Part shown: positions 1 through 47,740 of the stretch, piece by piece | Position numbering within the stretch: the stretch's first letter is position 1 | How the letters are laid out: every line of letters starts with the position of its first letter | NCBI RefSeq assembly: GCF_964204645.1 | Contig: NC_134030.1 | Span: 15,934,110 to 15,998,109, forward strand | From: Tubulanus polymorphus | Taxonomy: Eukaryota; Animalia; Nemertea | Direction of reading: 5' to 3' | Length of the DNA: 64,000 nucleotides | The notes under the pieces: model-generated | The model's database searches: none | What the model was told of the DNA's origin: nothing | Seen by the model: the letters and a program-made list of their open reading frames with translations, nothing else | Translations under genes and position numbers: made by a program

Positions 1-2234
1 TCTCATTAATTGGAAATCATCATTATTTGGGTAGTGTTGTTTTAATATTTTTAATTCATCATCAACTAATGATTTGGATAAGTTATCTAATGAACTATTT
101 AAAAATCTATATGAATCTATAAATCTTAGGCAACCAAATTGGAATGATATATAATTCTCAGATGTTTTAGCTAACATTCTAAATTTATAAGTTGGTATTT
201 TATCTTTTGATCTATTTGAATTTAATCTTTCTATTTCATTATTAATTTCTTCTATTTTATGGCATAACTGTTTGATAAATAAATGTGCATCATATCCTGA
301 TAGATTATGAAATATAACTGGTACAAAGTTAATTTTCTTAGCTTGTAAGTTACAATTCTCATGTGCAGCGCCTCTAAACTTTCCGTTCAAATGATCATGG
401 TCTCTTACTTTTTTATCTTTATAATTGAATATCTTTTCACAATAATAACATTTATCTGCAAACTCAAATGCTTCTTTATCTTCTTCTGTCATTATAATTT
501 CTATATTTGTATTCAATAATTTACTAAATCTTATTTCATATTCAATTAATAAGTCACAAAAATGATTGATAACATTTTCATTTCTATAATGATAATATTC
601 ACTTTTAATTAGTTCTGGATAATCAGATTTAATATATAACCCGAAAGCAGCAGCTGATTGATGAATCTTTTTAATTGTATTTGTTTTTGGTGGTTCATCT
701 GAAAAATCATTTTCATTAGAATTTAATTTCTTTCTTTTATATTATATTTCTTTTCTATCTTGATCAGTTAGTTCTTTATTTAATGATTCAAAATCTCCAT
801 ATATAACAAATGGTACTTTATTCTTGTAATCATATTTTTTGAATTCTAATATTTTATCTTTTTCATTTGGTAAAACTAATTTACAATAATCATGATTTTC
901 ACATAATTGTTTATGATTTAATAATGTACTTTCATTACTGAATCTATGTAAACATTTTCTACATAGATATATTTTATTATGGTGATCACTTTCTGTTCTA
1001 AAGAATAAATCTATTTGTTTAATCCACATATAATGATTCTCGTAATATAATATATTTATAACATCGTTTGAATCATAATCTTTTGATAGGTATATAGGTT
1101 CTAATGTATAATGTTTTATGTTGTTACCTTTTGTATTTGGTAATTTGATTAAAACAAATACATTTATTCTTAAATTATTATCTCTTTCTATTTTTGGGAT
1201 GTTTTTAATTCTAACAGGATACTTATCTATCTTATAATTATTTTCAAGTGGTTTATAATGAGTTAATCTACAAATATTATAAGTTGCAGGATGTAAGCAA
1301 CTAATTATTGCCCATAGAAAACATTTATCATCTTCATTTTGTACATTTATAACAGCATTAGTTTTAAATGGTAGTTTAATATAACTCGATGCTTCAATAT
1401 CTAGTTCTTTATAATATGACACATTATTTTCATAAATTGGTTTTGATTTAGTTAACTTATTATATTTTGTGTTATAAACATGTAAAGTCATAAATATTAT
1501 CTCATCAAATATTAAACCAGACCCTTCAAAATATTTCTCTTCTATTCTAGTTTTTACTTCATTATAACATTTATCTAATTTATCATCTATATGTTGTTTT
1601 GAAATAATATGTTGTGAATGAGAATTTATATTATATATTGGTTTATCTTCAGATTTTATAAACTTTACTTTAACCGATATACTAATTTTCGGATATTCAA
1701 CATCTGTAATTATTTTTATTATTTCTTTCATATTTTCTAAATGTTTTTTATTTTCTTCTAATGTTTTACCTTTATGAAATTTAAACTCGATAGCTGCTGG
1801 ACCAATATCACTTTTAAATGCTTCGGTTATCTCTATATCTTTTTTATTATCTAATGAATTAATATATTTTCTTACATCTTCCATGTATGGTCTTTTATTG
1901 TTTAATTTATTTTTTATGCTTTTAATTGTCTTCTGTTTCTTAACATTATCTTAATCAAAATAATCTTCACCTAAAATATCATTATTCTTATTTCTAATAT
2001 GACTTTTAGATTTTAAATGTTCATTATAATATCTCTGAATGATTGATTACATGTATCACATTTGTATGTTTCTTTTTCATTCTTTAATTCATCTAATTTA
2101 GTTTCTAATATATCATCTTTATATTCTAGTTTCAATTTATTCTCTAAATGTGTTTTAGTTTTATTGTGTCTTGATTTTTGGGATTTATGTATATTGATAT
2201 TACATGTTGGGCAGTAGTACTTATTTGCTTCCAT
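1..2234 (-). pseudogene. pPolB 5' portion, disrupted (copy 1)
   Basis: ORFs 2013-2234 (C2H2 finger CPTC...H...H) and 742-1884 (DDKCFLWAI, VIYGDFES) are nearly identical to ORF 27901-29634; frameshifts and stops lie between them. Confidence 0.9.
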
Positions 2235-2477
2235 TTTAATACTAAATTTTTTATTAAAATTGATTTTAGAAGTTCAATGATTTATATCATGTATTATTTC
2301 AATCACACTTTACTAACACTTTTAATGTTTAAAAATCTAACTCACACAAATATAAATATTGAAATAATGTTGTAAATATATCTATATATCTATTCTATAA
2401 GAGTTCACACTTTTATATTGAATAATCTGTCAATTTGAATGTTATTCATTTATATTTTATTCATGTATATGTGAATG

Positions 2478-2665
2478 AGTAATAGGGATAATAGGCTTTC
2501 AGGTTAAAGGTTGAAGGGGGGAGTGAGTAAAAAATGAAAATAATGATAATTTACAGTTGAATTAGGAGTGTGCGCGACTAATTCAACTGTAAATTATTGT
2601 TATTTTCATTTTTTACGAGCTCGACCGTTCGACCTTTGATCTGAAAGCCTATTATCCCTATTACT
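2478..2665. repeat. Terminal fold-back hairpin (~188 bp imperfect palindrome)
   Basis: AGTAATAGGGATAATAGGCTTTCAG...GAATTAG-GAGTGTGCGCGA-CTAATTC...CTGAAAGCCTATTATCCCTATTACT. Confidence 0.95.
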
Positions 2666-16557: not shown

Positions 16558-16732
16558 CGATTACATTTCACTTTCGACGTACGCCGCAATTTTACATTTT
16601 TCATAGGTGGCGCTAGCCAACGGACAGCGTCTTCCATCGTTACCGCTGCGGGTTTTGAGCGGCAATGCAAGAGGTCATCACACTGACATAGCGAAACTAA
16701 CTTAGCACGTTTATATCAAACAATAACACGTC

Positions 16733-17079
16733 AGTAATAGGGATAATAGGCTTTCAGATCAAAGGTCGAAGGGTCGAGCTCGTAAAAAAATGAAAATAAC
16801 AATAATTTACAGTTGAATTAGTCGCGCACACTCCTAATTCAACTGTAAATTATTGTTATTTTCATTTTTTACTCACGCGCCCCTTCAACCTTTAACCTGA
16901 AAGCCTATTATCCCTATTACTCTTAAAATATTCATATATATATAATATATAAACATAATTTACATGAATAACATTTAAATTGACAGATATTCAATATAAA
17001 AGTGTAAGCTCTTATAGAATAGATATGTAGATATATTTACAACATTATTTCAATATTTATATTTGCATGAGTTAGATTT
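16733..17079. repeat. Left TIR; 16733-16921 is a 189-bp hairpin
   Basis: Reverse complement of ~29832-30128, and self-complementary over its first 189 bp. Confidence 0.95.
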
Positions 17080-17523
17080 ATAGATATAGTTAAGATAAAA
17101 AAGTTTATTATATTAAATCCTAAAACAGTAAAAGAAAATTTAGATAATTGTATAAAAATAGCAATTGATACTTATAAAGGATCAAATACATTATTCATTG
17201 TAGATGATTGCGCTAATTTACATGATTCAAAAGTGAGAGAAAGTGAGTTATGTTATCTAGCTTTCTCTGGAAGACATTTCGGGATAACAACATGGGTTTT
17301 AAATAAAAAATATAATTCAATTGTTAAAGACTTTAGGGAGAATATAAGATTTCTAGTTTTATTTTATAACAAAGATAAAAAATCTATGCAACAATCATTG
17401 GAAGAAAATCAAATTATACCTACTGAATTACATGATGAATATATGAATAAATTAAAGAATAATAAAGGTTCAAAATTATTACTGAGATTACAATTTCCAT
17501 ATGAATATAAATTTATAAAATAA
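17071..17523 (+). pseudogene. A32/FtsK-like packaging ATPase, C-terminal half
   Basis: In-frame Walker B LFIVDD (17191-17208) and SGRH motif; no Walker A or start codon, and it abuts the TIR directly. Confidence 0.85.
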
Positions 17524-17877
17524 CTATTTATATACCTATGTATCTAATACGTATTTAATACGTATTAAATACATTAATACTTAAAACCCCCTTTTTTAAA
17601 ATAAATATTATTCATACAATTTTCAACCAATTTATTTTTATTTTTTTTAACTAATATATGAATAAGTTTGAAAATAATAAAGGTTATTTATTATTACTGA
17701 GGTTTCAATATAAATTTTAAAAAGAAATATAATTTAAGGTATTTTCAAATAATACGTATTAGATATGTATTAGATACGTATTAGATACCTTAATACTTAA
17801 AACCCCCATTTTTATTTACTATTATTTTATACAATTTTCAACCTTTATTACTTTTTGAGTTAAATATAATTAATATC

Positions 17878-18746
17878 TTAATCACTTTCACTATCAGACC
17901 CTAACAATCTATTCAAATGCTCTACTGAATCTACATCAATAGTTGTTTTATTTTTATACTTTTTCATCCTTTCTACCGCATCATCAATAGTTTCTTCTTT
18001 ATGTTTCATAGAATCTTTATTATCAATATCTGTAACTATATCACCATGTGGGTGCCATACGGCACCATTTTCATTATTATCTTTATTAGTGTTTGCTCCT
18101 AATATTTCATTTACAATGTTTGATTCTAATTTAATAGCATCGGTTAAATCTAATTCATCTTTATTAGGTGTTGCTAACAATAAATCTTCATATAATTCTT
18201 TACCATTTACTTTTTGATTTGAAACAAACTTTGTAACATATCTAAATGGGTGTTCTATAAATTCTTTTTTACCAACACGTTCTATAACATTAGTAGTATG
18301 TACCTTTGTATTCATATGATTATTCCAATTTGATGGAGCGTTTGAAAATTCACCTTTACAATAATCACAATAATTTCTATTTTCACTAACATTTAATATT
18401 GTTGCATTATTAGATGTAGAAGGTATAACATTATTAGATGTAGAAGGTATAACATTATTAGATGTAGAAGGTATAACATTATTAGATGTAGTAGGTATTA
18501 CATTATTAGATGTAGTAGGTATTACATTATTAGATGTAGAAGGTATTACATTATTATCAATTACATTACTTAAATTATCAACAACACCACTTATTATTAT
18601 CGATTTCTATTAGTTTAGTTTTATAAATTTTGAAAATAGGATCAAATATATAAAGCTATATTACAAGGTATTACATAATATAAACCATCATTATTTTCAT
18701 GTGTATCGATGTATGGAATATGTTTATATACTTTACCTCCTTCCAT
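17878..18746 (-). pseudogene. Viral protein with NNVIP(S/T)TS repeats and a C2H2 zinc finger
   Basis: TAAATG start at 18746, then a frameshift; CDYC...NNH..TKVH is in frame with ORF 17878-18315. Confidence 0.65.
18405..18556. repeat. 24-bp coding tandem repeat, 6 full units plus a partial unit
   Basis: Unit CATTATTAGATGTAG(A/T)AGGTAT(A/T)A. Confidence 0.95.
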
Positions 18747-18778
18747 TTATTATATAAATTTTTATTAAAGTTAAAATT

Positions 18779-20025
18779 TTAATACATAACACTATTCAAT
18801 TGAGAATTTACAATATTTAATTGCGCGTCAGATATAATATAAATGTGCATTTTAAAATTTTTGATTCCTTTATTCTTTGTCATGAATAATTGTATTCCAT
18901 CGTTAGTGTTCTGTAGTTTTTTTCCAGAACCATGTAATGAATTATCCTCTGTTGTTCTAAAATCTAACCATAATGCATATTTATTACCGGTATAATAATC
19001 AATTTGATTAATGTTACAATTTTCAGATGATTTCACTTTTTCATTCATAAAATGTTTTCTAATTTCTGGCCATTGATCAATCATTCTCATTCCTTGACAA
19101 AATATTTTATTTGCTATTCCTTCGATAGTTATTTCTACTTTTGTTATTTCAGGATTATAATAATTATCAACATTTATTGCACCATTAGTATATGTTGCAA
19201 TGGTAAAAATATTAACATACCTTTAATAGATCTTCTTGGGAAGTTAATATTCTCATTAATTATTTCATCATTTGCATTAATAGTTACAGTTTTAAATTTA
19301 TCAATATAATCATATAATAATGAAAATCCTTGATTGTATTGAGTTTGAATTATACTTGAAATATTTTCATCAGTTACTGTATCATATTCTAAACATATAT
19401 TCGATAATTTATAACTCATATCTTTATTAACGCTAGATATTACAATTTCATTAACAGGAGCAAATGTTATTTAGAATATAACATCTTCTTGAATTGCGTA
19501 TTTATATAAAGGCGCATTATTATTTATCAATTCGAAGTCTAATGGAATTTAATATTTGCTTCCATATATAATTTTTATCAATTTATCTATAGCATTAGTT
19601 AATATTGCGCTATTAGCTTCTGATCTTAATTTATTTTGGTTTTCTGATTGGATTCCTTGAAATATCATATTATTTCTATTTTCTTTAGTTAGCCATAAAT
19701 CTTTATAATGCATAAATAAATTATAATCATCTAATGAGAAAACTGTTTCTGGACCAATCTTTATAGTTAATTTTTTAATCAAATATCTTCCAACATTATC
19801 AACAACATAATTATTATTATTACCGATTACTTTTATATCGGCTGATAAATAAATACTATTTGGAACATAAAAAGTATTTTGTGTTAATCGAGGAATTCTA
19901 ACATATAAAGTTTCATCAGGATTAATATTAGAAGGGTTATGAGTAATTATATGATGTGATCTTTCTGCTTTAATAGCATTAGATATTCTATGATTCTTAG
20001 AAGGATTGATATAACTCCCACTCAT
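18779..20025 (-). pseudogene. Major capsid protein (double-jelly-roll type), disrupted
   Basis: Three ORF pieces totalling ~410 codons; THNPSNINP, NVGRYLIKKLTIKI, YKLSNICLEYD and KYALWLDFRT..LHGSG recall invertebrate Polinton-like MCPs (recognised by eye). Confidence 0.75.
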
Positions 20026-20065
20026 TTATTTAACAAAAAAATTAATTATCTATTTTTTATCATGT

Positions 20066-21721
20066 TTACTTGATATTTTTTGATATCATATTTACTAACC
20101 CAAAAATAATAGCACTTACAACTGTAATTAAAAATAAAATAATATGTTCAGCAGCAAAGTTAATAATGTTTCCTGCAGATTTCAATATAAAACCAACAAT
20201 TGATGCAATAACTCCTGGTAAAGCTGCAGCAGATTTTTTAGATAGTTCCCATAAATATTTTGCTAATTTCTTTAAACGATCTTTAACTTTATCTTGTATA
20301 GAATTATTATCTAGGGGTTTATCTGGTTTATTTGGAGTAGGAGTAGATTTCAAAGCATTTGATATAGCTAAACCAATTGATGTAAATAACATAGTTACAG
20401 CTGTTAGAATTGAAAGAATTGTTATTCCTTCTAATTTAAATAATAATTTTATTCTATCTTTCAATGATATTTTAGAATCTGGTTTTATCAACAAATCTTT
20501 AAAAATAACTTTTAATCTATTTATATTATAATCATATGATTTTAACAATAATTTAATTTCTTCTTTTTGTAATTCTAAATTATCTTTTAAATTATTAATT
20601 TCTTTTTCTAAACGTAATTCTTTTTGTCTATATTCCATTTCATCAATTACTTGACGATCAAGATCAGACTTTAATTGTTCTATTTCTTTATTTTTATCAG
20701 TTAATTCTTTTTCTAAATTGTTAATTTTAATATCTCTTATACTTTTTTCATTCGCAATTTTATCAGCCGATTCTTGCATACCTTTAATTTCTCTACGTGT
20801 TAGTTCAGGATATGCTTCTAATTCATTATCAGTTAAATCAAGTAATCCTTTTTCTAGTAAAGATTGTATTCGATTTATTCCAGTACTATTCATCTCTTCT
20901 TCTGAATCTCTTAATCTATCAATTTGTTTTTCTAATACTAATTTTAATTGACTTGAATCATTATCAATTGGTTGAGTGTCTCTTCTCGATGTTTCGGGTG
21001 TTGAAGATCTTAATTTATCTAATCGATCTCTATGATCTTCCATTTCTGGATCAACATCATTAGGATTTAAATTTGGATTTTTAAATGGTGAATATTTGTT
21101 AATATCAAATTTAGGAATTGGTTCTTCTTCATCTAGTATATCGAGTGCATTCCATATAATTCTGAGAAATTCTGTGCCACCTTTTGAATGTTCAATTGTA
21201 GATCTTGCTAACATTTTAGGTTCAAAAATATTTTCTTGACCAATTCTAGATAATTGTATTGATACAGTTTTGTTATTTAATTCAACATTATAATACCATG
21301 AATCATCTTTAAATTCTAAATTATTCATGAAAAATGGGTCATCATTTATAATTTGTTTTACAATTTCTTTATCTATTACATCTTTTGGTAATAATTCGTT
21401 AACAATTGTATATATTACTCTATTTTTCATTAATTTTAATTGAGATTTCATAAGAGGATCAGTTGTATTTACTAATCTTTTCATTAAATCCTTTTTAGAT
21501 GTTGCGGTTCTAATAACTAACCTTTCGGAAGCTGTCATATATTCTTTAAATTCTTTACGCGTTTCATAATCATAATCATCATCTTCACCTAAATTAGAAT
21601 TACGTCCTGGCTTATTACCATCATTAAAACTTGTTTCACTAAAATCAGGTGGTTGTTCATCAGTTATGCCAGGTTCATCTAAAGTATCCATTGGAAAATC
21701 TTCTCCACCTTTTACATCCAT
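20066..21721 (-). CDS. 551-aa coiled-coil protein with C-terminal hydrophobic/TM helices
   Basis: Intact ORF; heptad-rich segment at ~aa 300-400; hydrophobic segments GITILSILTAVTMLFTSIGLAI, AALPGVIASIVGFIL and IILFLITVVSAIIFGLV. Confidence 0.85.
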   Translation of the reverse strand: MDVKGGEDFPMDTLDEPGITDEQPPDFSETSFNDGNKPGRNSNLGEDDDYDYETRKEFKEYMTASERLVIRTATSKKDLMKRLVNTTDPLMKSQLKLMKNRVIYTIVNELLPKDVIDKEIVKQIINDDPFFMNNLEFKDDSWYYNVELNNKTVSIQLSRIGQENIFEPKMLARSTIEHSKGGTEFLRIIWNALDILDEEEPIPKFDINKYSPFKNPNLNPNDVDPEMEDHRDRLDKLRSSTPETSRRDTQPIDNDSSQLKLVLEKQIDRLRDSEEEMNSTGINRIQSLLEKGLLDLTDNELEAYPELTRREIKGMQESADKIANEKSIRDIKINNLEKELTDKNKEIEQLKSDLDRQVIDEMEYRQKELRLEKEINNLKDNLELQKEEIKLLLKSYDYNINRLKVIFKDLLIKPDSKISLKDRIKLLFKLEGITILSILTAVTMLFTSIGLAISNALKSTPTPNKPDKPLDNNSIQDKVKDRLKKLAKYLWELSKKSAAALPGVIASIVGFILKSAGNIINFAAEHIILFLITVVSAIIFGLVNMISKNIK

Positions 21722-21736
21722 TTACATAACAAAAAA

Positions 21737-23081
21737 TTAAAATTTAAAATATAATATTCCTCCGATTACAATTCCTATACAAGTTATAGCTAATTTAGTA
21801 TTTTCATGGGATTTATTATCATCATTTAGTTTAATTATATCATGTTGAATATTATCAGTTTTTATATCTTCTGATGTATTGTAATCTTTTATTTTAGGAT
21901 CATTATTTAATTTAATATTATTAGTTTTAGTTTCTGTTGATTGAATATGTTTTTTATTTTTTTCACCTTCCATTTATATTGGAGCAGTAATAATCTTTTT
22001 ATTTATATCATTTAATCCAAATGAATTATTTATTGTTGCAGTTTTAATTAGATTATTGTAACCAATTATGTTTCCCATCTTTAATACTAAATCATTAGAA
22101 ATAATAAATAGATTAGGGCCTATACAATAATTTAATCTAATATGTGATTTATCTAAATAATTTTGATATCTTACAATGTTTTCCGGAATCGATCTATTTT
22201 TATCATTATGAATTGAATCTTCAAATAAAACTTTGAATTGTTTCTGCGCATCGAATGAAGTGTTATCATTTACAATTATTGGGGATCTTGTTTCAACTTG
22301 AGCACCTAAAATACATATCAAATAAGTTCTAATTGATTGATTTATTCTTTGTATTCCAGCTTTAGTAAAACCGTCACTATTTTCTAAAATGAAATTAACC
22401 CAACCATTATTGTTTTGTTGTTGTATATTATTATAATATTTTGGTAATTCATTCCAATTTAGTAATTCATTCCAATTTAGTGTTCTTATATCTGAATTTG
22501 TCATTATTTTTCCAAATTCTTTAGTATATAATATTCCTAATCCACCCATTGTTCCAATTTTTGCTCTAAAATCTTTATTTGAATTAATATTAAATTTATT
22601 ACATATTTTATTAAAACTTAGAAAAATTAATATTATTATTCAATTCTTTAAAATATTTTGAACCTGGTAAAGGACATTCTAATTCATCTAATATTAATTT
22701 TATTTGAAAATATGTATGAAATCTAAAAGGTGATAACATCACTTGTAAACTTGGTTTGTTTAAATGATCATTCCAACTAATTCCACATCCTGTTGTTGCG
22801 CAATAAACAGCAAAATTTAATTGGTTCTGCCAATACTTCATATTAGATTTTAATAACCATTGTTTTGCCTCATTTAAATTTTTGAAATTAATTGTATACA
22901 CATGAAATATATTTTCCATCTTTACATGAAAATTATTACTTTCAGTAACATAAATATATAAATCAATTAATGAATTTAAAACTTCATTTCTATATGTAAT
23001 ACCTTTATTAAAATCTATTGCTGGAATATTATATTTAATTGATTTATTATATTGGAAAGCTTTTGGAAAACTATCTGCCAT
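21737..23081 (-). pseudogene. Conserved viral protein (YWQNQLNFAVYCATTGCG) with C-terminal TM anchor
   Basis: ORFs 22611-23081, 21974-22549 and 21737-21973; the last two are in frame across a single TAA; homolog at 44497-44795. Confidence 0.75.
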
Positions 23082-23097
23082 TTATATAATTAAAAAA

Positions 23098-23524
23098 TTA
23101 ATAATTTATCAATTCTTTTAATAATTTATCTTGTTCTTCAACTGTTATATGACCATTTAAACTTATTATATAATCTAGTGTATTCTTTAATTTATTAATT
23201 TCTTTTATATTAGTTTTCATTTTTTTCTTTATTACTTCTTATATTTAATTTTGAACTTATACCAGTTAAAACACTTGCACTTAATCCTAACACACCAATT
23301 GATATAGCTAAAGGTGTTAATGGACTGAATATTGCTAAAAATGTTATTACAGAACTAATTGTAACCGAACCACTTATAATCAAATAATATATAATTTTAG
23401 ATTTTAAATATTTTTTCTTTTTAACTTTTAAGTCACTTTCAAATTCTAATATTTGTTTTTCTAAATATATTTTTAATTTAGTTTTATTTATATCATGAGG
23501 AATAATATCAATATTATCATCCAT
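23098..23524 (-). pseudogene. Two-TM plus helical protein, frameshifted
   Basis: ORF 23210-23524 has two hydrophobic helices; the tail LKNTLDYIISLNGHITVEEQDKII lies in another frame; homolog at ~44810-45242. Confidence 0.7.
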
Positions 23525-23544
23525 TTATTTAGCAAAAAAAATTA

Positions 23545-23967
23545 CTAATTAGTAAACTTAAAAGCAACAAATATAACAATAACTGTTCCACCTAAAATCC
23601 AAATTATTTCATATTTCTGTTGTTCTTTACTTGGGGTATAATAATCTGATAATTTAGGTTTGTATAGATGTAATTTTTCTTTATTGGTTACCGCGTTATA
23701 TAAACTCATTGCATCATCAACTGATTGAAAATCTCTATGTGAAATCTTCTGATCATATAATTCCTTGTTAATATAATCCATATAGTTTTGCCTCTTTTCT
23801 CTATATTCTTCTGCTGCTTTATTGTATTTCTCTAATGCTAAGTTATGTCTTTTTTGTTCTGTTAATGATCCATTTTTATCAATATGTTTAAATAAATATC
23901 CACCACCAGTAAATGCTAAAGCGTTAACAATTGCCGATCCTATAATAGTTATAACCGCAGAAGCCTT
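23545..23967 (-). pseudogene. Membrane protein with hydrophobic N- and C-termini; start codon mutated (ATG>AAG)
   Basis: In-frame upstream ASAVITIIGSAIVNALAFTGGGYLF...KRHNLALEK; C-terminal TM; TAAAAG in place of TAAATG. Confidence 0.75.
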
Positions 23968-23991
23968 TTATTTAGAAAAATAATTACGCAT

Positions 23992-24213
23992 TTATATGGG
24001 AGGAATATATGTTTGTTTTTCCATATAATCAATAGTTAAATTAGATAAAGTAACTGCTAATGTTAATTTTAAGATATCATTTATATCAAATCTATCAACA
24101 TTAACACTTCCCATTTTAAATACTTTTTTCAATACCATTGAATAACCAACAGTTCCAACTGATAGTAATGCTCCATTATATAATCCAGTTATTATCCACT
24201 TATTATCACTCAT
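23992..24213 (-). CDS. Small 73-aa putative membrane protein
   Basis: Intact; hydrophobic helices; conserved homolog at 45682-45909. Confidence 0.8.
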   Translation of the reverse strand: MSDNKWIITGLYNGALLSVGTVGYSMVLKKVFKMGSVNVDRFDINDILKLTLAVTLSNLTIDYMEKQTYIPPI

Positions 24214-24554
24214 TTATTTATCAAAAAATTACTTTCATCAAAATATTTAGTTAACTTATTTATGATTAATTCAACATTTATTTCATTACTACTTTTATGA
24301 TTATCATATATTTTGGTTAATATGTTTTTAATATCATCAATAATTCCATCTTCATTTAATTCATAATATTCTAAAGGTGATTTAATTAAATCAATTACTT
24401 TTTCTATATTATAATTTTCTTTATTAATCATTGATGCATTGTTAAATGATTTACTTTTTATATCAGTAATTACATCATTTAGTTTAATTCTCATTTCTTT
24501 ACCATGTATAAAATCAAAACCAAAACATATACTCGGTCCAACAGTTATATTCAT
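24210..24554 (-). CDS. Hypothetical viral protein, 114 aa
   Basis: TAAATG start; MNITVGPSICFGFDF is also present in the decayed homolog ending at 46263. Confidence 0.7.
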   Translation of the reverse strand: MNITVGPSICFGFDFIHGKEMRIKLNDVITDIKSKSFNNASMINKENYNIEKVIDLIKSPLEYYELNEDGIIDDIKNILTKIYDNHKSSNEINVELIINKLTKYFDESNFLINK

Positions 24555-24571
24555 TTATATAGCGAAAAAAA

Positions 24572-25333
24572 TTACTCTCTACATCTTATAACTAATTCAT
24601 AAATTACAGGGAAATTATTTAAATCAATTAAGTATCCATTGTGATTTCTAATTTCTAATCTAAAATTATTAAAACGAGGAATTCATGGTTTGAAATCACA
24701 TTCTGTTAAATTATAATTTATTTGCGTTCCAAATTATTTAACATTCTTCAATGGTAAAATGTTTAATAAACCAGAATTACAAGTTATATCTTTAGTTGCT
24801 TCGAATGTTTTTGTAGGATCGATTAAATTGCAATAAATATAGAAATGTGTGTAAGGTATTAAGTTTGGTGTAACATCATCAATATTTTTAAAAGATCTAT
24901 CTGGAAGAATTCCTAACAGTTTAGCTATAGGTTTTTTTACCATAAATTTATGTTTTTCACTATTAGACAACCTTATCTTTATTCTATCAGAACTATCACT
25001 TTTTAAAAATCTAATACTAAACCCAGAACTACTACCTAATTAATGCCAGGCTTTTCTATTAATTTCTTGTGCTAATGTATCTAAATTATATAACCCCGGT
25101 TTTAAATATATATAGGACCATTCATTTTTACCTTTATCAAAAATTAAAAAGGCTCTATGTTCAATAGTTTTATTCCTTATATTATAAAAAGAATTACATA
25201 AACTTATTTTAACTAATTTTAAATCTACACAATTCTTGAATTCTCTATCTAATTGTACTAGTAAATTATGAGATTTACAATTTGTAAGTTTTCTTGAATC
25301 AACAAATATTCTGTATTCTTTTAATTCTACCAT
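24572..25333 (-). pseudogene. Minor capsid protein (penton, single jelly roll), disrupted
   Basis: IFVDSR, SLCNSFYNI, PGLYN, AKLLG, FYIYCNLID, LLNILP and LEIRNHNGYLIDLNNFPVIYELVI follow the typical penton motif order. Confidence 0.8.
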
Positions 25334-25350
25334 TTATTTTACATATTTTC

Positions 25351-25704
25351 TTATTCGAAATCTATTTCATGGTGCCCTTTTTCATTCTTACCTTTGTATA
25401 CGAAATAGAAATCTCCAGAACATAATTCTCCTAAATCTTCACTTGATAATCTATGAAATCTATCTGGTAAATATGTTCTGAATTTATGTGTATTTCCTTT
25501 TAATCCTTCATATTCTAAGTATATAACTAATTTATCTCCATAGTTATTAGTAACTGTATCAATATTTGTAATTAGATATTTCTTATGAATTGTTAATTTT
25601 ATTAACTTTTTGAATTTATAATCTACAGATTTTACATTTGTTATATCTTTAATTCTATCTAGAAATAATTTGTTGTTCTCACTGTGTGTTTGTTTACTCT
25701 CCAT
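25351..25704 (-). CDS. 117-aa viral protein, possibly OB-fold ssDNA-binding
   Basis: Intact; pattern FKKL..L...KKYLI....T.YGDKLVIYL...TYLP.RF...FVYKG; the fold is an inference. Confidence 0.6.
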   Translation of the reverse strand: MESKQTHSENNKLFLDRIKDITNVKSVDYKFKKLIKLTIHKKYLITNIDTVTNNYGDKLVIYLEYEGLKGNTHKFRTYLPDRFHRLSSEDLGELCSGDFYFVYKGKNEKGHHEIDFE

Positions 25705-25788
25705 TTATAATACATATTTTAACACGTAAGAATTCTTTTCATTATCTCGTTCTCTTTTGTTTCTTCTCTTTTAAATTTTAAGTATGAA

Positions 25789-28700
25789 CTAAGTATAAGC
25801 GACTGTATGAATTCCATCATCTAAAATATATCTTTTATCATCAAATGGGTTTAGACTTATCTTTTCAATTTCTTCAATAAACATTTCATGATCTTCAGAT
25901 CTTAAACATCTCATCTTATGTTTTCTAACTTCTTCATTGAATATACAATTGATGTAATCTTTGAAATGAATATTCTTTTCTACTACACTTTTGGTTATTC
26001 CTTTTAACTTTTTAGCTTCATGTTCTTTAGTTTTATATGAATACATTGTAGATCTAATACCTATGAATTCAATCATTTCTTCACCACCTAATTCATCTTT
26101 GAATTTACCGGGAACTTTTTTATTATCATTGCTAAACAATTCATGATCTTTAGGATAATTACTGAAATCAAAATGATGTTTTAATGTTTTTAAATCATCA
26201 GTTATGTTATTAGTTTTTATCTTTAATATGTAACTGTCGGTATCAAAATATAGTATTTCTATATGTTTTTCTCCAAAAAGTGGTTGTAATACATTATAAT
26301 AGAATTCATACATTAGTAATTTTGATAATTCTAAAACTGAAGCGCCAACATAGATTGGTTTAATAAATTTCATTGATGTTCTTCTCATCTTAACTGCAGC
26401 TAAATTTTCATCAAATATTCTGTAACCAATGAACTTAGGATATGTTTGTAAATGTCTAATTCTTTTACCATTACTAACTAACTCAATATCATTTCTATTT
26501 CTAATATATTCACAAGTCTTACCATAGAATGCATTATTCATTAACTTGAAGAAATCTTTTTCGAAATCAGTTTTAGCTTCAGTTCTCTGTTTGGTGTTAA
26601 AATCTATATATTTTTCTAACCACTTAGATTGACTGAATGAAATATATCTATGTACTTATTTTAGAACCATTCCTTGTTTTAGATAAAACTTTAACATTCT
26701 ATAATGTACTACATAATTAGATTTATCTTCCTGAGTTACCATTAACTTTTCTGTATGAATATGATTTTCAGGTTTAATTCTTTTTTGGTAATTTGATAAT
26801 TCTTCATGAGTTACAGTTTTATGTTCGGGACAGTAAGCTAGATTTCTAGATTTAAATTTAATATGTTCAGGATATTCTAAATCTACAACAAAGAAGTAAC
26901 CAGTATCTGAATCATCTGCAATATCTAGAATTCTTTTCTTCCAATCAAATTTATCATTATTTTCATTCTGTAAAACTTCACTTACTTCAAATACTCCATA
27001 AGGTTGTGGTTCCATCATTGCCCAACCATACAAATTATTTGCATCTATATATAATAACTTATATCCAGGGTTATCATTTACATTGAAATATCTATCGCCT
27101 TATACACCTGAAACTCCTCCTCTTATAGATTTTTCAAATAATAATAATTGATCTATATTTGTTAACAAATCCATTTTTATATCTGTAAATTTTAATCCAC
27201 AATCCCATGTAAAACCTGGGCTAGAATAACAATGACAAGGATCAATATTGAAATATTTTAGGTTTACATCTCTAAACCTTTCGAATATATCGGTTAATAA
27301 TAATACATCTGATTTTAAATATAAATCTACTAATTGCCCATGATTTTCTATTTTGAAATGATTCCAAATATTCAATGTTCTATTATAGACTTCATCTTTC
27401 ATTTTTTAATTCATCATAGAATTGTTCTTTCAATAATTCAGTTATGTTAAAATCATTATGTGATTTATAAAATGAATATGGAATTGCTCCTTTATATCTC
27501 ATTAATTGAAAATCATCATTATTTGGGTAGTGTTGCTTTAATATTTTCAATTCATCATCAACTAATGATTTTGATAAGTTGTCTAATGAACTATTTAAAA
27601 ATCTATATGAATCTATAAATCTTAGGCAACCAAATTGGAATGATATATAATTCTCAGATGTTTTAGCTAACATTCTAAATTTATAAGTTGGTATTTTATC
27701 TTTTGATCTATTTGAATTTAATCTTTCTATTTCGTTATTAATTTCTTCTATTTTATGACATAACTGTTTGATGAATAAATGTGCATCATATCCTGATAGA
27801 TTATGAAATATAACTGGTACAAAGTTAATTTTCTTAGCTTGTAAGTTACAATTCTCATGTGCAGCGCCTCTAAACTTTCCATTCAAATGATCATGGTCTC
27901 TTACTTTTTATCTTTATAATTAAATATCTTTTCACAATAATAACATTTATCTGCAAACGCAAATTCTTCTTTATCTTCTTCTGTCATTATAATTTCTATA
28001 TTTGTATTCAATAATTTACTAAATCTTATTTCATATTCAATTAATAAGTCACAAAAATGATTGATAACATTTTCATTTCTATAATCATAATATTCACTTT
28101 CAATTAGTTCTGGATAATCAGATTTAATATATAACCCGAAAGCAGCAGCTGATTGATGAATCTTTTTAATAGTATTTGTTTTTGGTGGTTCATCTGAAAA
28201 ATCATTTTCATTAGAATTTAATTTCTTTCTTTTATAATATATTTCTTTTCTATCTTGATCAGTTAATTCTTTATTTAATGATTCAAAATCTCCATATATT
28301 ACAAATGGTACTTTATTTTTGTAATCATATTTTTTGAATTCTAATATTTTATCTTTTTCATTTGGTAAAACTAATTTACAATAATCATGATTTTCACATA
28401 ATTGTTTATGATTTAATAATGTACTTTCATTACTGAATTTATGTAAACATTTTCTACATAGATATATTTTATTATGGTGATCACTTTCTGTTCTAAAGAA
28501 TAAATCTTTTTGTTTAATCCACATATAATGATTCTCATAATATAATATATCTATAACATCGTTGGAATCATAATCTTTTGATAGGTATAAAGGTTCTAAT
28601 GTATAATGTTTTATATTGTTACCTTTTGTATTTGGTAATTTGATTAAATCAAATACATTTGTTCTTAAATTATTATCTCTTTCTATTTTTGGGACGTTTT

Positions 28701-29733
28701 TTATTATAACAGGATACTTATCTATCTTATAATTATTTTCAAATGGTTTATAATGAGTTAATCTACAAATATTATAAGTTGCAGGATGTAAACAACTAAT
28801 TATAGCCCATAGAAAACATTTATCATCAAAATTTTGTACATTTATTACAGCATTAGTTTTAAATGGTAGTTTAATATAACTCGATGCTTCAATATCTGGT
28901 TCTTTATAATATGATACATTATTTTCATCTATTGGTTTTGATTTAGTTAACTTATTATATTTTGTGTTATAAACATGTAAAGTCATAAATATTATTTCAT
29001 CAAATATTAAACCAGATCCTTCAAAATATTTCTCTTCTATTTTAGTTTTTACTTCATTATAACATTTATCTAATTTATCATCTATATGTTGTTTATATAT
29101 AATATGTTGTGAATGAGAATTTATATTATATATTGGTTTATCTTCAGATTTTATAAACTTTACTTTAACCGATATACTAATTTTAGGATATTCAACATCA
29201 GTTATTTTTATTATTTCTTTCATATTTTCTAAATGTTTTTTATTTTCTTCTAATGTTTTTCCTTTATGAAATTTAAACTCGATAGCTGCTGGGCCAATAT
29301 CACTTTTAAATGCTTCGGTTATCTCTATATCTTTTTTATTATCTAATGAATTTATATAATTTCTTACATCTTCCATGTATGGTCTTTTATTGTTTAATTT
29401 ATTTTTTATGCTTTTAATTGTCTTCTGTTTCTTATCATTATCTTTATCAAAATAATCTTCACCTAAAATATCATTATTCTTATTTCTAATATGACTTTTA
29501 GATTTTAAATGTTCTTTAAAATATCTTTTATCACTGAATGATTGATTACATGTATCACATTTGTATATTTCTTTTTCATTCTTCAATTCATCTAATTTAG
29601 TTTCTAATATATCATCTTCATATTCTAGTTTCAATTTATTCTCTAAATGTGTTATAGTTTTATTGCATCTTGCTTTTTGGGATTAGTCTATATTGATATT
29701 ACATGTTGGGCAGTAGTACTTATTTGCTTCCAT
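25789..29733 (-). pseudogene. polB: Protein-primed-type family B DNA polymerase with N-terminal zinc fingers, an OTU-like protease and an EndoVII-like insertion; disrupted
   Basis: ExoI YGDFES, ExoII FHNLSGYD, ExoIII YLKSDV, SIRGG, motif A DANNLYG, motif B KLMNNAFYGK, motif C YFDTDS; several stops and frameshifts. Confidence 0.95.
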
Positions 29734-29831
29734 TTTAATACTAAATTTTTTTTTAAAATTGATTTTAGAAGTTCAATGATTTATATCATGTATTATTTCA
29801 ATGACACCTTACTAACACTTTTAATGTTTAA

Positions 29832-30128
29832 AAATCTAACTCATACAAATATGAATATTGAAATAATGTTGTAAATATATACTTTTATATTGAATAATCT
29901 GTCAATTTAAATGTTATTCATTTACATGATTATTTTAAGAGTAATAGGGATAATAGGCTTTCAGGTTAAAGGTTGAAGGGGCGAGTGAGTAAAAAATGAA
30001 AATAACAATAATTTACAGTTGAATTAGGAGTGTGCGCGACTAATTCAACTGTAAATTATTGTTATTTTCATTTTTTTACGAGCTCGACCCTTCGACCTTT
30101 GATCTGAAAGCCTATTATCCCTATTACT
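29832..30128. repeat. Right TIR; 29940-30128 is a 189-bp hairpin
   Basis: Inverted copy of the left TIR, and self-complementary. Confidence 0.95.
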
Positions 30129-33100
30129 CACGTCTTAAAAAAAAAAAAATTACATTTATTTTTTTACGTAACATAATTTTTCCCTCCCGTATTTTAACTT
30201 TAAAAAACGTAAGATTTTCAGAAAAACGTACTCCCGTAAATTGAGGTTCGTTTCCGTAGCAATTATGGAAAATACGTACAGGTTGGCACCTCTGTTAGAA
30301 ATTAGACAAGGCAAAAGGCCGACAGATCCTATAGCCGTCCGCACTCACTTGGGCTGGTGTATTTTAGGTCATACGGTTCAAGGGTCTCGTAATGAACCGA
30401 GGTTCTGTTTTAAAACGACAGCCATTGAGACTCATGGTACAGTTTTGTCGTTGGACAAGCAAGTTGAAAAATTTTGGGAGACCGAAACGTTCGGCGGCGT
30501 TGACCTCTTCGATGATGATAAAAAATCGTGCTCTGTAGAAGATCACCGTGGATTGGAGATCTTTGATAAATCCTGCTGTTCAGTCGACGAACACTACCAG
30601 GTTGGTATGCTTTGGCCGAACATGGATTCATCCATGCCCAATAATCGATTTCAGGCCAAAATCCGTTCCACAAATCTTAAGAAACGATTGAATAAAGACA
30701 CACAATGAATGGCTCTTTATTGCAAAACCATGAATGGCTACATAGAAAAGGGCCATGCAAGGAAAAGGAGTAATGGAGAGTTACAATCCCTTGGTAAAAG
30801 AGCATGGTTTCTTCCCCACCATGGTGTAGTTAACCCCAATAAACGCGACAAGGCCAGGGTAGTGTTTGACGCTGCAGCTCCGTACCTCGGTGTATCTTTA
30901 AATAATCAATTAATGACAGGGCCAGATTTATTAAACAGTCTGTTTGGGGTTTTGCAGCGGTTTCGTTTAGGAGTTGTTGCCATTGCAGCTGATGTGGAAG
31001 GCATGTTCCACCAAGTGAAAGTTCCGGGGGCTGATTCAAAGTCCCTTCTGTTTTTGTGGCAAGAAGATTTAACCGCTGATGGGGAGCCGGAAGTCTATAA
31101 AATGACAGTACATATTTTCGGCGCAGCGGATTCCCCATGTGTTGCTAATTATTGTTTTAAACGCTCAGCCACTTTGCTTTGCTTTTCAGTGAAGATGCCG
31201 TACAGACTATAATACGAAATTTCTATGTGGATGATATGTTAAAATCTGTATCTTTTCCATTACAGGCCATCGAACTAGCAAAGGAAGTAACAGAAATTCT
31301 GGCTCGTGGTGGTTTCCACCTCACTAAATGGATGTCAAACAACCGTGAGGTACCAGCGCAGATTTCGAAAGATGAGAGAGCCCGTCCTGAATTAGACTTA
31401 GAACTCGACGAGATGCCTGTTGAGAGAGCACTCGGCGTGAAATGGGATGTCGAAACTGATTCGTTCCTGTTCAAGCCAGCTGTTAGAGTGGGAATCCCGA
31501 CGAAGCGTCTTGTCGTTAGTACGGTTAGTTCCATTTTCGATCCGTGTGGTTTTGTGTCTCCTTTTTCAGGGCGAAGTGTCTTATACAGCAGATATGGAGA
31601 CAGAACTTCGATTGGGATACTGCATTGTATGGTGATGTTCTCACACGCTGGCTGAAATAGATAAGTGAGCTACATTTTTAGTTGACTTCAGACTAAACCG
31701 GCACCATGTAGATTTGTATGTTGGAAGCACTAAAGTAGAATTCCACATATTTTGTGATGCTTCGGAGGCTGGCTTTGCTGCTGTTGTGTATCTCCGAATG
31801 GAGCGTCCATCAGATGAATTTGTGTGTTCGTTCTTGGCGTTAAAGACGAAGGTGGCTCCTCTTGAAATGTTAACTGTTCCCAAATTGGAGCTGGAGGGAG
31901 CCGTTCTCGTTGTCATGCTGTCTAGTTCGCTTAAACATGAGTTGAAGATATTGGAATTTGAGCGCACTTGCTACTGGACTGATGCGGTTTCTGTCCTGAG
32001 GTATATAAACAACATGTCGACACGCTTGAAAACGTTCGTCGCCAATCGATTAGCGAAAATTCACCGTTCTACCAACGCTCAGCAACGGATGCATGTGCCA
32101 TCAGATCAGAATGCCGCTGATGCTGCTACAAAGGGTTTACCAGCAGCTGGGATCGATTGGACCCCATGTGGCTAAATGGCCCTCAGTTCCTTAGGTTTCA
32201 TGAGTCTGAATGGCCAGATCAGACTTTTGTTCATGGTCCAGTACTATATCCTTCAAATGTGAAAAAATGTTCTCTGTATAAAACAAGTGTTGTCGTTAGT
32301 AAAGCTGAAAATTATGTTGTGATTCTAGCATTCTTGAATTTAGTCGTATTTCGGATTGCACAGATGTCTATCGATTCTCACCATGGTTCAAGCTACGGCG
32401 GCATGTAGCCTGGCTTCTACGTGCGGTGAGAAAATTCTCATCAGTCATTCCTCGTCTGAAAGTCGACCGAGGCCGGAAAGGTCGCCTTCTATTCCTAAAT
32501 ATCTCCAAAAGAAGTCCCTTGCTCCCGTTACGTCCGTTTTATGACGGAGGTGTCCTGAGAGTCGGCGGTCGTTTGACAAACGCAGTGATACCATATGAGG
32601 CCAAGCATCAGGTTATATCGCCCTTTGGTGACCATATTACCCGCCTTATCGTTGCTGATGTACACGAATCTCTTTATCATGCTGGGCCGGAACATGCAAT
32701 TTCTGAGGTCAGGCAAAACTTTTGGCCCGTAAAGGCCCGTAGCTTGGTGCAAAGTGTAATTAGTAAGTGCTCAGTTTGTCGCCTCAGTAGAATCAACCCA
32801 TCGATCCCTATTATGGCTGATTGTCCCGTGTTGCTGGTTATACCCGTCCTTTTACTTATACAGGTATCGATTATTTTGGTCCCATGTTTGTTAAGCTTGG
32901 TAGAAGCATAGTTAAAAGATGGTGCCGTTTGTTTACGTGCCTTCTAACGAGGGCGATTCACTTGGAAGTTGCGGATAACCTGGAAACCAATGCTTTCATT
33001 TTAGTCTTGCGTAATTTCATAGGCCGAAGAGGTCCGCCATCCGAAATTTACAGCGACAACGGAACTAACTTCGTGGGCGCTGATCGCGAACTTAGCGAAG

Positions 33101-36132: not shown

Positions 36133-36242
36133 TTATAATATTATACACACACACGAATTGTCTACACTGCTTTTACTGGATCGGCTGGTCTGAACTGATT
36201 GAGGTCGGCCATTCTGACCATCACAATCTTCATCATCTGAAT
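36133..36242 (-). CDS. Host gene terminal coding exon ending in CaaX (CIIL*)
   Basis: TTACAG acceptor; (D)SDDEDCDGQNGRPQSVQTSRSSKSSVDNSCVCIIL*; phase matches exon 57948-58086. Confidence 0.65.
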
Positions 36243-43800: not shown

Positions 43801-45681
43801 TAAGTGAGTAATCGAAAATGTACAGGATACATTCGTGTGGATGAAATCAAGATAACTCCACCCTAAAATTCCACTATTCAATGGTCAACACGCAGCTTAA
43901 ACAAACCGCCATTCAATACGCAAGTCATAATGTATATCTACGCACATCAAATCAAAACACTTGAATTACAAGGGTTGACTCACGAGAAACGATTAAACTA
44001 GCAATTTGATTGGGAAAATAACGGCACTTTAGTTAAAAAAAATGATAAACCACCTCTGACTTAGCTTAGCCCTCATATGGAACTATTTCTGACAGGTGCA
44101 CTCTGCCACTGTGATTCGCCCATTCAACGATAGAAACTTTTCCACGGTCTTACTATCGACATTTTCTAACAATTTAGGGAAATATCTAAAAAAAGAAATT
44201 TCACACTCTGCATTAATAAGATTAAAGGTCAAGTGCCCTCTTATTCCTACTTTTTGAGGTTTACTTTCCAAATGATACTTAAGTACTCAAATAATGACCT
44301 GGGATCAGCCTTATAGAAAAAAATCATGTATGTCCCTTAAATCAGTAAAATTTAATAACTCGATCATTGACCTATACAGCGTATGCGCCTTGGCCGCAGC
44401 TGCATGTCAGCGCCATATTCATGCGTCATCTTTGCCAAACAAACATACACGTGAGTAATAGGGTAAGTGTCTTTTCATACCAGAGGTCGAAAGGTCCAAC
44501 TTATACCACATCCTGTTGTTGCACAATAAACAGCAAAATTTAATTGATTCTGCCAATATTTTATATTAGATTTTATTTTATATATATTATATTCATCTCG
44601 AGTAAAAGTAACTTCATATGATGTAAATATATTTTCCATATTAGAAATAAAATAATTAGTTTCAGCTACATAAATTTCTAAATTAATTAATGAATTTAAA
44701 ACTAAATTTTCATACGAAATATTTTTATTTAAATCTATTGCAGGAATATTATATTTAATGGATTTATTATATCGGAAAGCTTTTGGAAACCCCATTTACA
44801 TAAGAAAATTAATAATTAATTAATTCTTTTAATAATTTATCTTGTTCTTCAATTGTTATGTTACCATTTAAACTAATAATATAATCTAATGTATTTTTCA
44901 ATATATTAATTTCTTTTATATTAGATTTTATTTTTTCTTTATTACTTTTTATATTTAATTTACAGCTTATATACCAGTTAAAACACTCGATGATAATCCT
45001 AGCACACCAATTGATATAGCTAAAGGTGTTAATGGTGAGAATATTGCTAGAAATGTTATTTCAGAACTAATTGTAGCTGAACCACTTATAATAAAATAAT
45101 ATATAATTTTGCTTTTTAAATATTTTTTCCTTTAAACTTTTAAATCATCAAATTCTAATATTTGTTTTTCCAAGTATAATTGTAATTTACTTTTATTTGT
45201 ATCATGAGGAATAATATCATTATTATCAACTTTATCATCCATTTATTAAAAAATTACTAATTTGTAAATTTATATGCAACAAATAAAACAATAACAGTTC
45301 CACTTAAAATCCATATTATTTCATATTTCTTCTGTTTATTACTTGGGGTATAATAATCTGACATTGTAGGTTTGTATAGATGTAATTTTTTCTTTATTTG
45401 TTACTGCGTTATATAAACTCATAGCCTCATCGATTGATCGAAAATCTCGGTGTGAAATTTTCTGATTATATAATTCTTTATTAATATAATCCATAAAATT
45501 TTGTCTATTTTCTCTATATTCTTCTGCAGCTTTATTATATTTTTCTAACGCTAAGTTATATCTTATTTGTTCTGATAATGAACCATTTTTATCAATATGC
45601 TCTAATAAATAACCACCACCTGTAAATGCTAAAGCGTTAACAATTGCCGATCCTATAATAGTTATTATTTAGTAAAAAAAA

Positions 45682-45909
45682 TTATGCATTTATAGGAGGG
45701 ATATATTTTTGTTTTTCTAAATAATCAATAGTTAAATTAGATAAAGTAACTGCTAATGTTAATTTTGAAATATCATTTATACCAAATCTATCAACATTAA
45801 TACTTCCCATTTTAAATACTTTTTTAAATATCATTGTATAACCAACTGTTCCCATTGATAGTAATGCTCCATTATATAATCCAGTTATTATCCACTTATA
45901 ATCACTCAT
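45682..45909 (-). CDS. Small membrane protein, homolog of 23992-24213
   Basis: Intact 75-aa ORF, closely similar sequence. Confidence 0.75.
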   Translation of the reverse strand: MSDYKWIITGLYNGALLSMGTVGYTMIFKKVFKMGSINVDRFGINDISKLTLAVTLSNLTIDYLEKQKYIPPINA

Positions 45910-46280
45910 TTATTTATCAAAAAAATCACCTTCAAAATATCTAGTTATCTTCGTTATAATTATTTCAACATTCATAATATCATTAGTTTCATTTTTATAT
46001 ATTTCAGTTATTATTCTTTTAATATCATCGATAATAAAATCTTCATCTTATTCATAAAATCTTAAAGAATTTCTAATTAAATCAGTAATCTTTTCTACAT
46101 TATAAGTTTCTTTATCTGTTATTTTTTCATAATCAAATGTTGTTCCATTAAAAAATGCAATATTTTAAATATGTGTAATTACATTATTAATATCAAATTT
46201 CATTTCTTACTCACATTTAAAATCAAATCCAAAACATATACTCGGTCCTACTGTTATATTCATATTCATATAACAAAAAA

Positions 46281-46904
46281 TTACTCTATACATCTTATAA
46301 CTAATTCATAAATTACAGGAAAGTTATCTTAATCAATTAAATATCCATTATGATTTCTTATTTCTAATTTAAAATGATTAAATTGTGGAATACAAGGTTG
46401 AAAATCACATTCAGCTAAATTATGATTTAGTTTAAAGTTTAGTAACAGTTTAGCTATAGGTTTTTTAACTAAAAATTGATGTTGTTCGTCATTGTCTAAC
46501 CTAATCTTTATTTTATTATTAATATCACTTTTATTAAATCTAATTCCAAACTTATCTTCACTCTTGAATTTTATAAATCTAATTGCAAATTTATGTTCAC
46601 TTCTAATTTTTAACCGTGCTCTTCTTTTAATTTCTTGAGCTAATGTTTCCAAATTATATAATCCTGGTTTTAAAAGTAAAGTAAACCATTTACTTATAAT
46701 TCTAATATGATTCATAAAAGAATTATATTCTAGAGTTTTATCCGATAAATTACAAATCGAATTACTTAAACTTATATTTACAAATTTTAAATCTACAAAA
46801 TTTCTAAATTCTCTATCTAATTGTACTAGTAAATTGTGAGATTTATAATTTGTAAGCTTTCTAGAGTCAACAAATATTCTATATTCTTTTAATTTATCTT
46901 GCAT
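46281..46904 (-). pseudogene. Penton homolog, internally deleted
   Basis: IFVDSRKL, PGLYNL and LEIRNHNGYLID, followed by a premature stop. Confidence 0.75.
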
Positions 46905-47740
46905 TTATTTTACATATTTTTTTATTCGAAATCTATATCATGACATCCTTTTTCATTCCTACCTTTGTATATGAAATAGAAATCACCAGAACACACTTCT
47001 TCTAGATCTTCACTAGATAATCTATGAAATCTATGTGGTAAATATGTTCTGAATTTATATTCATTTCCTTTTAATATTCTAAGTGAATAACTAATTTATT
47101 ACCATATCTATTAGTAATTGTTTCAATATTTGTAATTAAATATTTCTTATGTAATGTTAATTCTGTTAACTTTTTGAATTTATAATCTACAGATTTGACA
47201 TTTGTAGTATCTTTAATTCTATTCTATTCTATTTAAGTCACTGTGTATTTGTTTACTCTCCATTTATTATACATATTTTTTTATAAAAATTTCATTTATA
47301 TAATATTCATTTATATAATGTTCATACATATGAATATCATTAGAGTAAAAGGGTTAGTGTTGTTTCATATCAGAGGTTGAAAGGTTGAGTGAGTGAAAAA
47401 TAAAATGAAATTCGAGCGTGTGAGAATTTATTTTTTATTCTTTATGAGCTCGACCTTTCGACCTCTGGTATGAAAAGACACTTACCCTATTACTCATGTG
47501 TGTGAACTCAGTACACATTGCCTATATGTAAAATCAATAAAACAACACCATTCCTTCACTTTATTCACAGCTCTACTGCTGGCTATCCATTGTATGTTTC
47601 TTGTGTTATCTATTACAGTATCAACAGTATCATCAGAAAGAATTTAGGAATCTTAAACAACTTCTAAAAGGATTAAATACGCTACGAATGGTGATTATGC
47701 GGTGCAGGATTAGAGACTGGAAACTGTTGGATTATTTCAG

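Follow-up and report, generated by a model that had tools for sequence, protein, structure and literature searches.

Promoter Sharing in Known Systems and a Possible Counterpart at the Tubulanus Locus

Use of the helper's late promoter is established for the virophages Sputnik and Mavirus (bioRxiv 10.1101/2022.07.28.501842; 10.1101/2025.10.09.676808), and promoter sharing with a helper is also known for protist virophages, a Polinton-like virus (PLV), and transpovirons. For animal Polintons, helper dependence or a virophage-type antiviral role has been put forward only as a hypothesis (PMC8097293). Here, we analyzed a stretch of 64,000 nucleotides from the nemertean Tubulanus polymorphus (contig NC_134030.1, positions 15,934,110 to 15,998,109; hereafter, the window), in which positions 16733–30128 are a decayed 13.4-kb Polinton/Maverick element; this copy is a deleted, broken relic. 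Polintons are usually assumed to use host RNA polymerase II (Pol II).

Like the virophages Mavirus and Sputnik and the PLVs Gezel-14T and PgVV, the element is a small, capsid-coding, double-stranded DNA with a putative promoter of giant-virus type and no RNA polymerase, as no such gene was found in the element or its relatives (29 loci, L001–L029, from one metagenome scan) by Pfam and homology comparison of open reading frames (ORFs). With Mavirus, the lineage also shares a protein-primed family B DNA polymerase (pPolB), an rve integrase, and a GC content that is low relative to the host. However, these virophages and PLVs use Mimiviridae motifs (TCTA, AAAATTGA) and have protist hosts, whereas here we find a pox-type motif, a Polinton-lineage major capsid protein (MCP), and an animal host. 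The features shared with Polintons/Mavericks include terminal inverted repeats (TIRs) starting AG, a 6-bp target-site duplication, pPolB, a double-jelly-roll MCP, and an A32-type ATPase, all present in the window copy, as well as an integrase of the rve-chromodomain type, which is present in L001 and L003 and absent from the window copy (no match by homology comparison). Unlike typical Polintons/Mavericks, the element has TIRs that are fold-back palindromes, and no protease gene was found; Pfam comparison of 23 ORFs from the window and 25 from relatives, a set that includes a deleted window copy and an incomplete L001, gave no match to an adenain-type maturation protease. Entomopoxvirus-associated PLVs are also animal Polinton-like elements and are proposed to parasitise poxviruses; all four encode an adenovirus-type protease, not found here (PMC11296320). 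The words promoter, motif, and TAAAT do not occur in the main text of that paper. Yeast pGKL elements share a TAAAN initiator beside the ATG (PMC6211774), as well as AT-rich compact genes and pPolB.

A Fixed Start Motif in the Window Element

The genes whose starts were compared, and a mini-element of a diverged sister family in the same window, are as follows.

17878..18746, minus strand: broken zinc-finger-like gene; TAAATG at 18744–18749, promoter of the A-rich subclass
18779..20025, minus strand: double-jelly-roll MCP gene, broken, matching the L001 MCP at 67–76%; T7-N6-TAAATG
20066..21721, minus strand: 551-aa gene with coiled coil and hydrophobic tail; T6-N6-TAAATG
21737..23081, minus strand: homologue of the L001 442-aa gene, broken; T6-N7-TAAATG
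23099..23524, minus strand: homologue of the L001 144-aa membrane-type gene, broken; T8-N6-TAAATG
23545..23967, minus strand: homologue of the L001 139-aa gene, without start codon (TAAAAG); T at −12 retained
23992..24213, minus strand: 73-aa gene; T6-N6-TAAATG
24210..24554, minus strand: 114-aa gene; T7-N7-TAAATG
24571..25333, minus strand: putative penton-like gene, broken, so labelled from its position and a beta-rich, low-confidence model; AAAATATGTA subclass, TAAATG
25351..25704, minus strand: 117-aa gene; AAAATATGTA subclass, TAAATG
25789..29733, minus strand: pPolB gene, broken, with a weak DNA_pol_B_2 match (E 0.0011) and 30–41% to an L020 1301-aa protein; start TAAAATG with T at −12
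44454..47494, minus strand: 3.04-kb mini-element of the sister family, flanked by a separate target duplication (CACGTG/CATGTG) and with ends of its own; TAAATG at 5/7 start positions

The original prediction, made from the sequence alone, held that nine of ten co-oriented genes start at TAAATG; at all nine coordinates, there is indeed the A of an ATG on the minus strand, with TAA directly before it. The tenth start, 23967, reads TAAAAG as proposed, and it is the true start position, since similarity with the 139-aa protein of L001 starts at 23964. Because in-frame internal ATGs cannot follow TAA, the proposed comparison with internal ATGs requires out-of-frame ones; TAA precedes only 17 of 230 out-of-frame minus-strand ATGs (7.4%; positions 17801–29800), so that 9/10 represents a clear enrichment (p = 6e-10). 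The predicted T6-8-N6-7-TAAATG layout is also present, although at six starts (24554, 24213, 23524, 23081, 21721, and 20025) rather than the five first announced; across the window, T6-N6-7-TAAATG occurs eight times versus 0.52 expected (six in the element, one in the sister family, and one elsewhere). As had been claimed, the TAA is not the stop codon of the upstream gene at any of the ten starts, which are separated from the upstream gene by gaps of 15–84 nt; the gene upstream of 24213 has an overlapping TGA as its stop. The five sister-family starts named previously (44795, 45242, 45909, 46904, and 47263) all read TAAATG; among the seven start positions of this family, 46263 does not, and the start of the 139-aa gene is lost. 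In addition, a feature absent from the original prediction was found, i.e., a T 12 nt before the ATG (position −12) at 11/11 non-homologous window starts, including the TAAAATG start of pPolB (p = 1e-5).

Distribution of the Motif among Related Elements

A quick MCP tree with 61 rows, in which the window MCP is represented by its 158-aa piece, grouped the window with L001–L010 (Shimodaira–Hasegawa-like approximate likelihood ratio test [SH-aLRT] 91), beside a sister group of about 35% relatives (SH-aLRT 99); L027 and L028 were placed in the window clade by identity, and the sister clade comprises L011–L026 and L029. Starts were listed by hand (71 for the window clade and 46 for the sister clade), after exclusion of internal fragments and of ORFs truncated at a contig end. 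TAAATG is present at 62/71 window-clade starts, on both strands, vs. 7/46 sister-clade starts; these seven are all integrase starts (7 of 10), leaving 0/36 for the other genes of the sister clade. With a blind first-ATG rule, TAAATG was found at 43/50 starts in 12 window-clade loci vs. 7/78 in 13 of 18 other loci. The T at −12 accompanies 58/62 TAAATG starts (51/54 without near-duplicates; 14/15 in L001), as compared to 92/271 starts of AT-rich viral controls and 18/46 sister-clade starts, and 42/62 TAAATG starts have a G at +4. The sister clade presents a different shared promoter, with a TATA-like TTAAAR approximately 25–34 nt before the ATG in 26/46 starts, and has an A at −3 in 76% of starts; between −42 and −18, TTAAAR is found at 9/71 window-clade starts vs. 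the 26/46 of the sister clade.

One could propose that AT bias combined with common descent produced the motif by chance, given that the element has a GC content of 23% (vs. 39% in the surrounding host DNA) and that 27/271 AT-rich viral control starts read TAAATG. However, the enrichment calculated from the window alone is already too strong for this, genes of a single element share no homology, and the motif is kept at about 55% MCP identity and in clade loci of 36–44% GC (9/11 starts). This explanation, to which we assign next to no weight, is refuted by the start counts.

Divergent starts bear on another alternative, in which the motif acts in translation or at 3′ ends, either as an in-frame stop before the ATG that allows re-initiation on polycistronic RNA or as AATAAA serving as the poly(A) signal of the upstream gene. 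In favour of such a role, neighbouring genes are separated by 15–40 nt, 33/62 starts overlap an AATAAA, and the TAA of a few relatives coincides with, or directly adjoins, the stop of the gene upstream. On the other hand, TAAATG is kept at 9/10 divergent starts in the clade, which have no co-oriented upstream gene (T at −12, 10/10); the stop codon before the ATG is TAA in 62 cases, TGA in one, and TAG in none, whereas real stops are TAA in 37, TGA in 7, and TAG in 4; and 29/62 starts lack AATAAA, while the T at −12 is left unexplained. This alternative is thus very improbable and already largely refuted.

Several observations describe where relatives of the element occur. No MCP relatives were found in IMG/VR or in prokaryote genomes. 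Among the matches listed, MCPs matching P0001 at 48% or above are found only on contigs of <17 kb, while many 33–40% relatives are on contigs of up to 2.7 Mb. Several Bartonella assemblies include a clade member, annotated on contigs of 0.5–1.6 kb, which probably derives from eukaryotic contamination of the sample.

Comparison with Poxvirus Promoters

Vaccinia late promoters have two parts, a fixed upstream T and a TAAATG over the start codon (PMC11980589; PMC5294985; PMC11423596, Table 1), with the late consensus T-N9-TAAATG (PMC11423596, Table 1); TAAATG also marks late genes in entomopoxviruses and fish poxviruses (PMC3061580; PMC4542343). The proposed match with the vaccinia strong late promoter stands as far as the form of a putative post-replicative, poxvirus-type promoter is concerned, including TAAATG over the start codon, the fixed upstream T, the T-rich surround, and the G favoured after the ATG; it fails as an exact match, with the fixed T located 8 nt, not 9 nt, upstream of TAAATG. 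Unlike in vaccinia, nearly all genes use the motif here, including those for integrase, ATPase, and kinase, in an element without RNA polymerase. The kinase gene is a deoxynucleoside kinase gene of the clade member L001 (10340–10981), with the same promoter.

The motif AAAATATGTA, reported previously upstream of the penton-like and 117-aa genes, was recovered there in both window families, accounting for 4 of its 8 window matches. Across the clade, positions −16 to −13 are A-rich in penton-like (4/4), zinc-finger (4/4), and pPolB (1/1) genes and in 3/6 ATPase genes, the other ATPase starts being mixed, and T-rich in the 73-aa (5/5), 551-aa (3/3), 206-aa (3/3), and MCP (9/13) genes. A gene-specific subclass is present, as suggested, but the T at −12 and TAAATG are kept in it and the published intermediate spacing is absent. 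The published intermediate promoter is TAAAAA-N14-TAAA, with no fixed upstream T (PMC11423596), while the A-run of the subclass is at −16 to −13 and retains the T at −12. Judged from these sequences, weak and strong promoters of one class would be as likely an explanation of the A-rich subclass as a second temporal class.

Two further poxvirus-type signals were considered and not used as evidence. For AAAANTGAAAANNA, a candidate for the poxvirus early consensus, 6/9 window matches are copies of one TIR palindrome, >300 nt from the pPolB start, making it a weak lead. The early terminator T5NT is depleted on coding strands (11 vs. 36), but T and A runs in general are depleted likewise; the contrast specific to the terminator (9/20 vs. 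39/45) is not significant (p = 0.19), and this signal was rejected.

Source of the Transcription Machinery

Lacking an RNA polymerase gene, the element must be transcribed by an enzyme supplied in trans. The constant spacing between the fixed T and TAAATG is of the kind expected for a promoter from which transcription starts at the ATG. The combination of no own RNA polymerase and one shared motif at nearly all genes is a virophage-type trait; since a single motif at nearly every gene is the Sputnik/Mavirus pattern, a helper's post-replicative promoter is the best reading. We thus consider it probable that T-N8-TAAATG serves as a post-replicative promoter for a helper giant virus's RNA polymerase and that the elements represent a virophage-like, integrating Polinton clade. 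The promoter reading held through all sequence tests, i.e., divergent starts, GC-richer relatives, the sister-clade control, and the second fixed T. Under such a mechanism, the A-run of TAAAT, two bases ahead of the ATG, would be the site of transcription initiation, and slippage there would extend the mRNA by a 5′ poly(A) leader, which would take the place of the T at −3 and supply the ribosome with a leader. By the Kozak rule, translation starts poorly in a context with T at −3 unless a leader takes its place. Polymerase slippage on TAAAT is described to yield poly(A) leaders (PMC6211774). The presence of a late-type signal at all genes may reflect that a satellite meets the helper machinery only once helper factories form, and an upstream T-run or A-run may set promoter strength or timing.

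The enzyme supplied in trans could also come from a helper that is not a nucleocytoplasmic large DNA virus (NCLDV), e.g., a linear cytoplasmic element that is autonomous, like yeast pGKL2 (initiator TAAAN). Yeast virus-like elements carry pPolB and terminal repeats; pGKL2 differs from the present element in encoding its own RNA polymerase and capping enzyme and in having no capsid or integrase. These yeast elements combine the TAAAN initiator with slippage (PMC6211774). Their stem-loop terminators also resemble the hairpin found after the ATPase gene (see below). However, the upstream part of the motif here is a fixed T and not the yeast upstream sequence, no element bearing an RNA polymerase was found in the window or the 29 related loci, and we know of none of the pGKL2 kind in animals; we regard this source as quite unlikely.

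Roughly half of the weight that we give to a helper virus falls on a poxvirus-like helper. A bolder version, which we hold only tentatively, is that the clade consists of integrating virophages of poxviruses or of an undiscovered pox-like invertebrate lineage; every gene, including the integrase, would be under a pox-type late promoter, chromosomal copies would stay silent until infection, as Mavirus does in protists, and T-N8-TAAATG would be the fingerprint of the helper.

A number of observations weigh against a helper virus, or against a poxvirus in that role. The clade motif T-N8-TAAATG (58/62) falls one base short of the vaccinia consensus, with a T at −13 (i.e., T-N9) at only 44/62 TAAATG starts. 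A T5NT terminator is nearby at only 8/53 stops. In the sister clade, the TAAATG starts of the integrase lack the fixed T at −12, and AATAAA is undepleted on its coding strands (32 vs. 29), as in the window clade, so that the AATAAA test does not separate the clades. L009, inside the clade, has TAAATG at 0/2 scored starts, with a TAAATG located 4 nt before its MCP ATG. Two IMG/VR motif scans (63 loci in a complete scan; at least 120 loci in the other) revealed no helper, as none of the loci listed had clade-like frequencies; matches were mostly due to chance, and no pox record turned up, so that the scans include no direct pox control. The L001 kinase, used as a helper probe, identified one distant IMG/VR locus with one TAAATG start, and protein relatives at ≥60% were found only on short contigs. 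Two records picked as top matches of a motif scan, G001 and G002, both carry NCLDV capsid and VLTF3 genes; in three of their stretches, which were not picked for the motif (L214–L216), TAAATG starts 3/7, 5/20, and 8/20 genes (16/47). The capsid N-termini of these two records (loci L214–L216, L121, and L125 in all) are of a type that we take to be iridovirus/marseillevirus-like, and the presence of TAAATG starts in these non-pox viruses shows that the motif is not exclusive to poxviruses and leaves a poxvirus helper unproven. In G001 and G002, AA precedes most ATGs, and TAAATG or TAAAATG starts are frequent; no comparably fixed T at −12 was found (11/17, 64%). Finally, transcripts of coral polintons have been described, with no helper known for them (PMC11131425).

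Expression of coral polintons also speaks for transcription by host Pol II, which could start at TA(+1)AAT in the nucleus, aided by an element factor such as the zinc-finger protein, and produce almost leaderless mRNAs. Chromosomal integration of the element, the presence of zinc-finger genes, and the G at +4 in 42/62 starts are consistent with this possibility, and the T-A step fits the general pyrimidine-purine initiator rule. We nevertheless consider Pol II unlikely, although a more serious contender than a pGKL2-like helper. The TATA-like TTAAAR that is common in the sister clade is present at just 9/71 starts of the window clade, a TATA box at −5 would place the Pol II start within the ORF, and AATAAA is dense inside genes (3.9 per kb on window-clade coding strands, with no depletion; 154 vs. 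162 expected). Moreover, leaders of 2 nt support translation poorly, and no Pol II element known to us consists of an invariant T ten bases ahead of the start.

Structure of the Element and Other Features of the Window

The remaining features are listed here by position.

1..2665, minus strand: second copy of the element (right end and 5′ part of pPolB), 95% identical, interrupted by the window edge
16727..16732: left target-site duplication CACGTC, identical to the hexamer at 30129–30134
16733..16941: left TIR, starting AGT, itself a fold-back palindrome of ~190 nt
17083..17520, plus strand: A32-type packaging ATPase gene, 3′ part, the 5′ part missing (Pox_A32, E 5.5e-6; 78% to residues 58–204 of the L001 ATPase)
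17520..17880: hairpin-rich spacer on which the ATPase and zinc-finger genes converge (RNA fold z −4.9)
29920..30128: right TIR, a fold-back palindrome (DNA fold z −23.9)

The element is bounded by TIRs that begin AGT and by the 6-bp duplication CACGTC, and several of its small genes encode membrane-type proteins; the target sites read all start with CA, most of them with CAC. Long fold-back palindromes within TIRs were found at 16733–16922, 29939–30128, 2478–2665, and 47343–47494; in the diverged sister family, the fold-back is retained while the sequence differs in both arms, and its mini-element (44454–47494) is complete and internally deleted. The TIR fold-back could regenerate an origin on the displaced strand. 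Between the convergent ATPase and zinc-finger genes, 17438–17849 contains an imperfect duplication of ~200 nt and palindromes; inverted repeats downstream of the ATPase gene are also found in L001, L003, and L005, and the spacer at 17520–17880 is a possible terminator. Within the zinc-finger gene, a tandem 24-nt repeat (18381–18596) encodes an eight-residue repeat. A model of 16 MCP relatives matches the PBCV-1 capsid (E 1e-12). For the penton-like protein, a single-sequence fold (pLDDT, predicted local distance difference test, 39) was too poor for structure search. A PDB sequence search returned nothing meaningful, and an Atlas look-up gave capsid clusters only, or no match. Host DNA of the window (30200–42700, 47700–52500, 61600–64000, and 5700–8000) contains BEL/Pao retrotransposons, a long interspersed nuclear element (LINE), a gypsy-like element, and transposase remnants, a set in keeping with an animal host.

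Implications for Animal Polintons

The motif is real, clade-wide, and apparently undescribed in Polintons, and it belongs with the theme of promoter sharing by virophages; no description of a TAAATG-type motif in Polintons was found in the open-licence literature, and the word promoter does not occur in bioRxiv 10.64898/2026.10.13.758929. A probable pox-type promoter with fixed spacing that is found throughout one clade and is absent from its sister clade represents sequence evidence for helper dependence, and bears on the question of whether Polintons of animals live as nuclear viruses in their own right or as virophages that depend on large DNA viruses. The motif would mark a switch of transcription machinery inside one Polinton lineage, and T-N8-TAAATG provides a search key for a helper virus of invertebrates.

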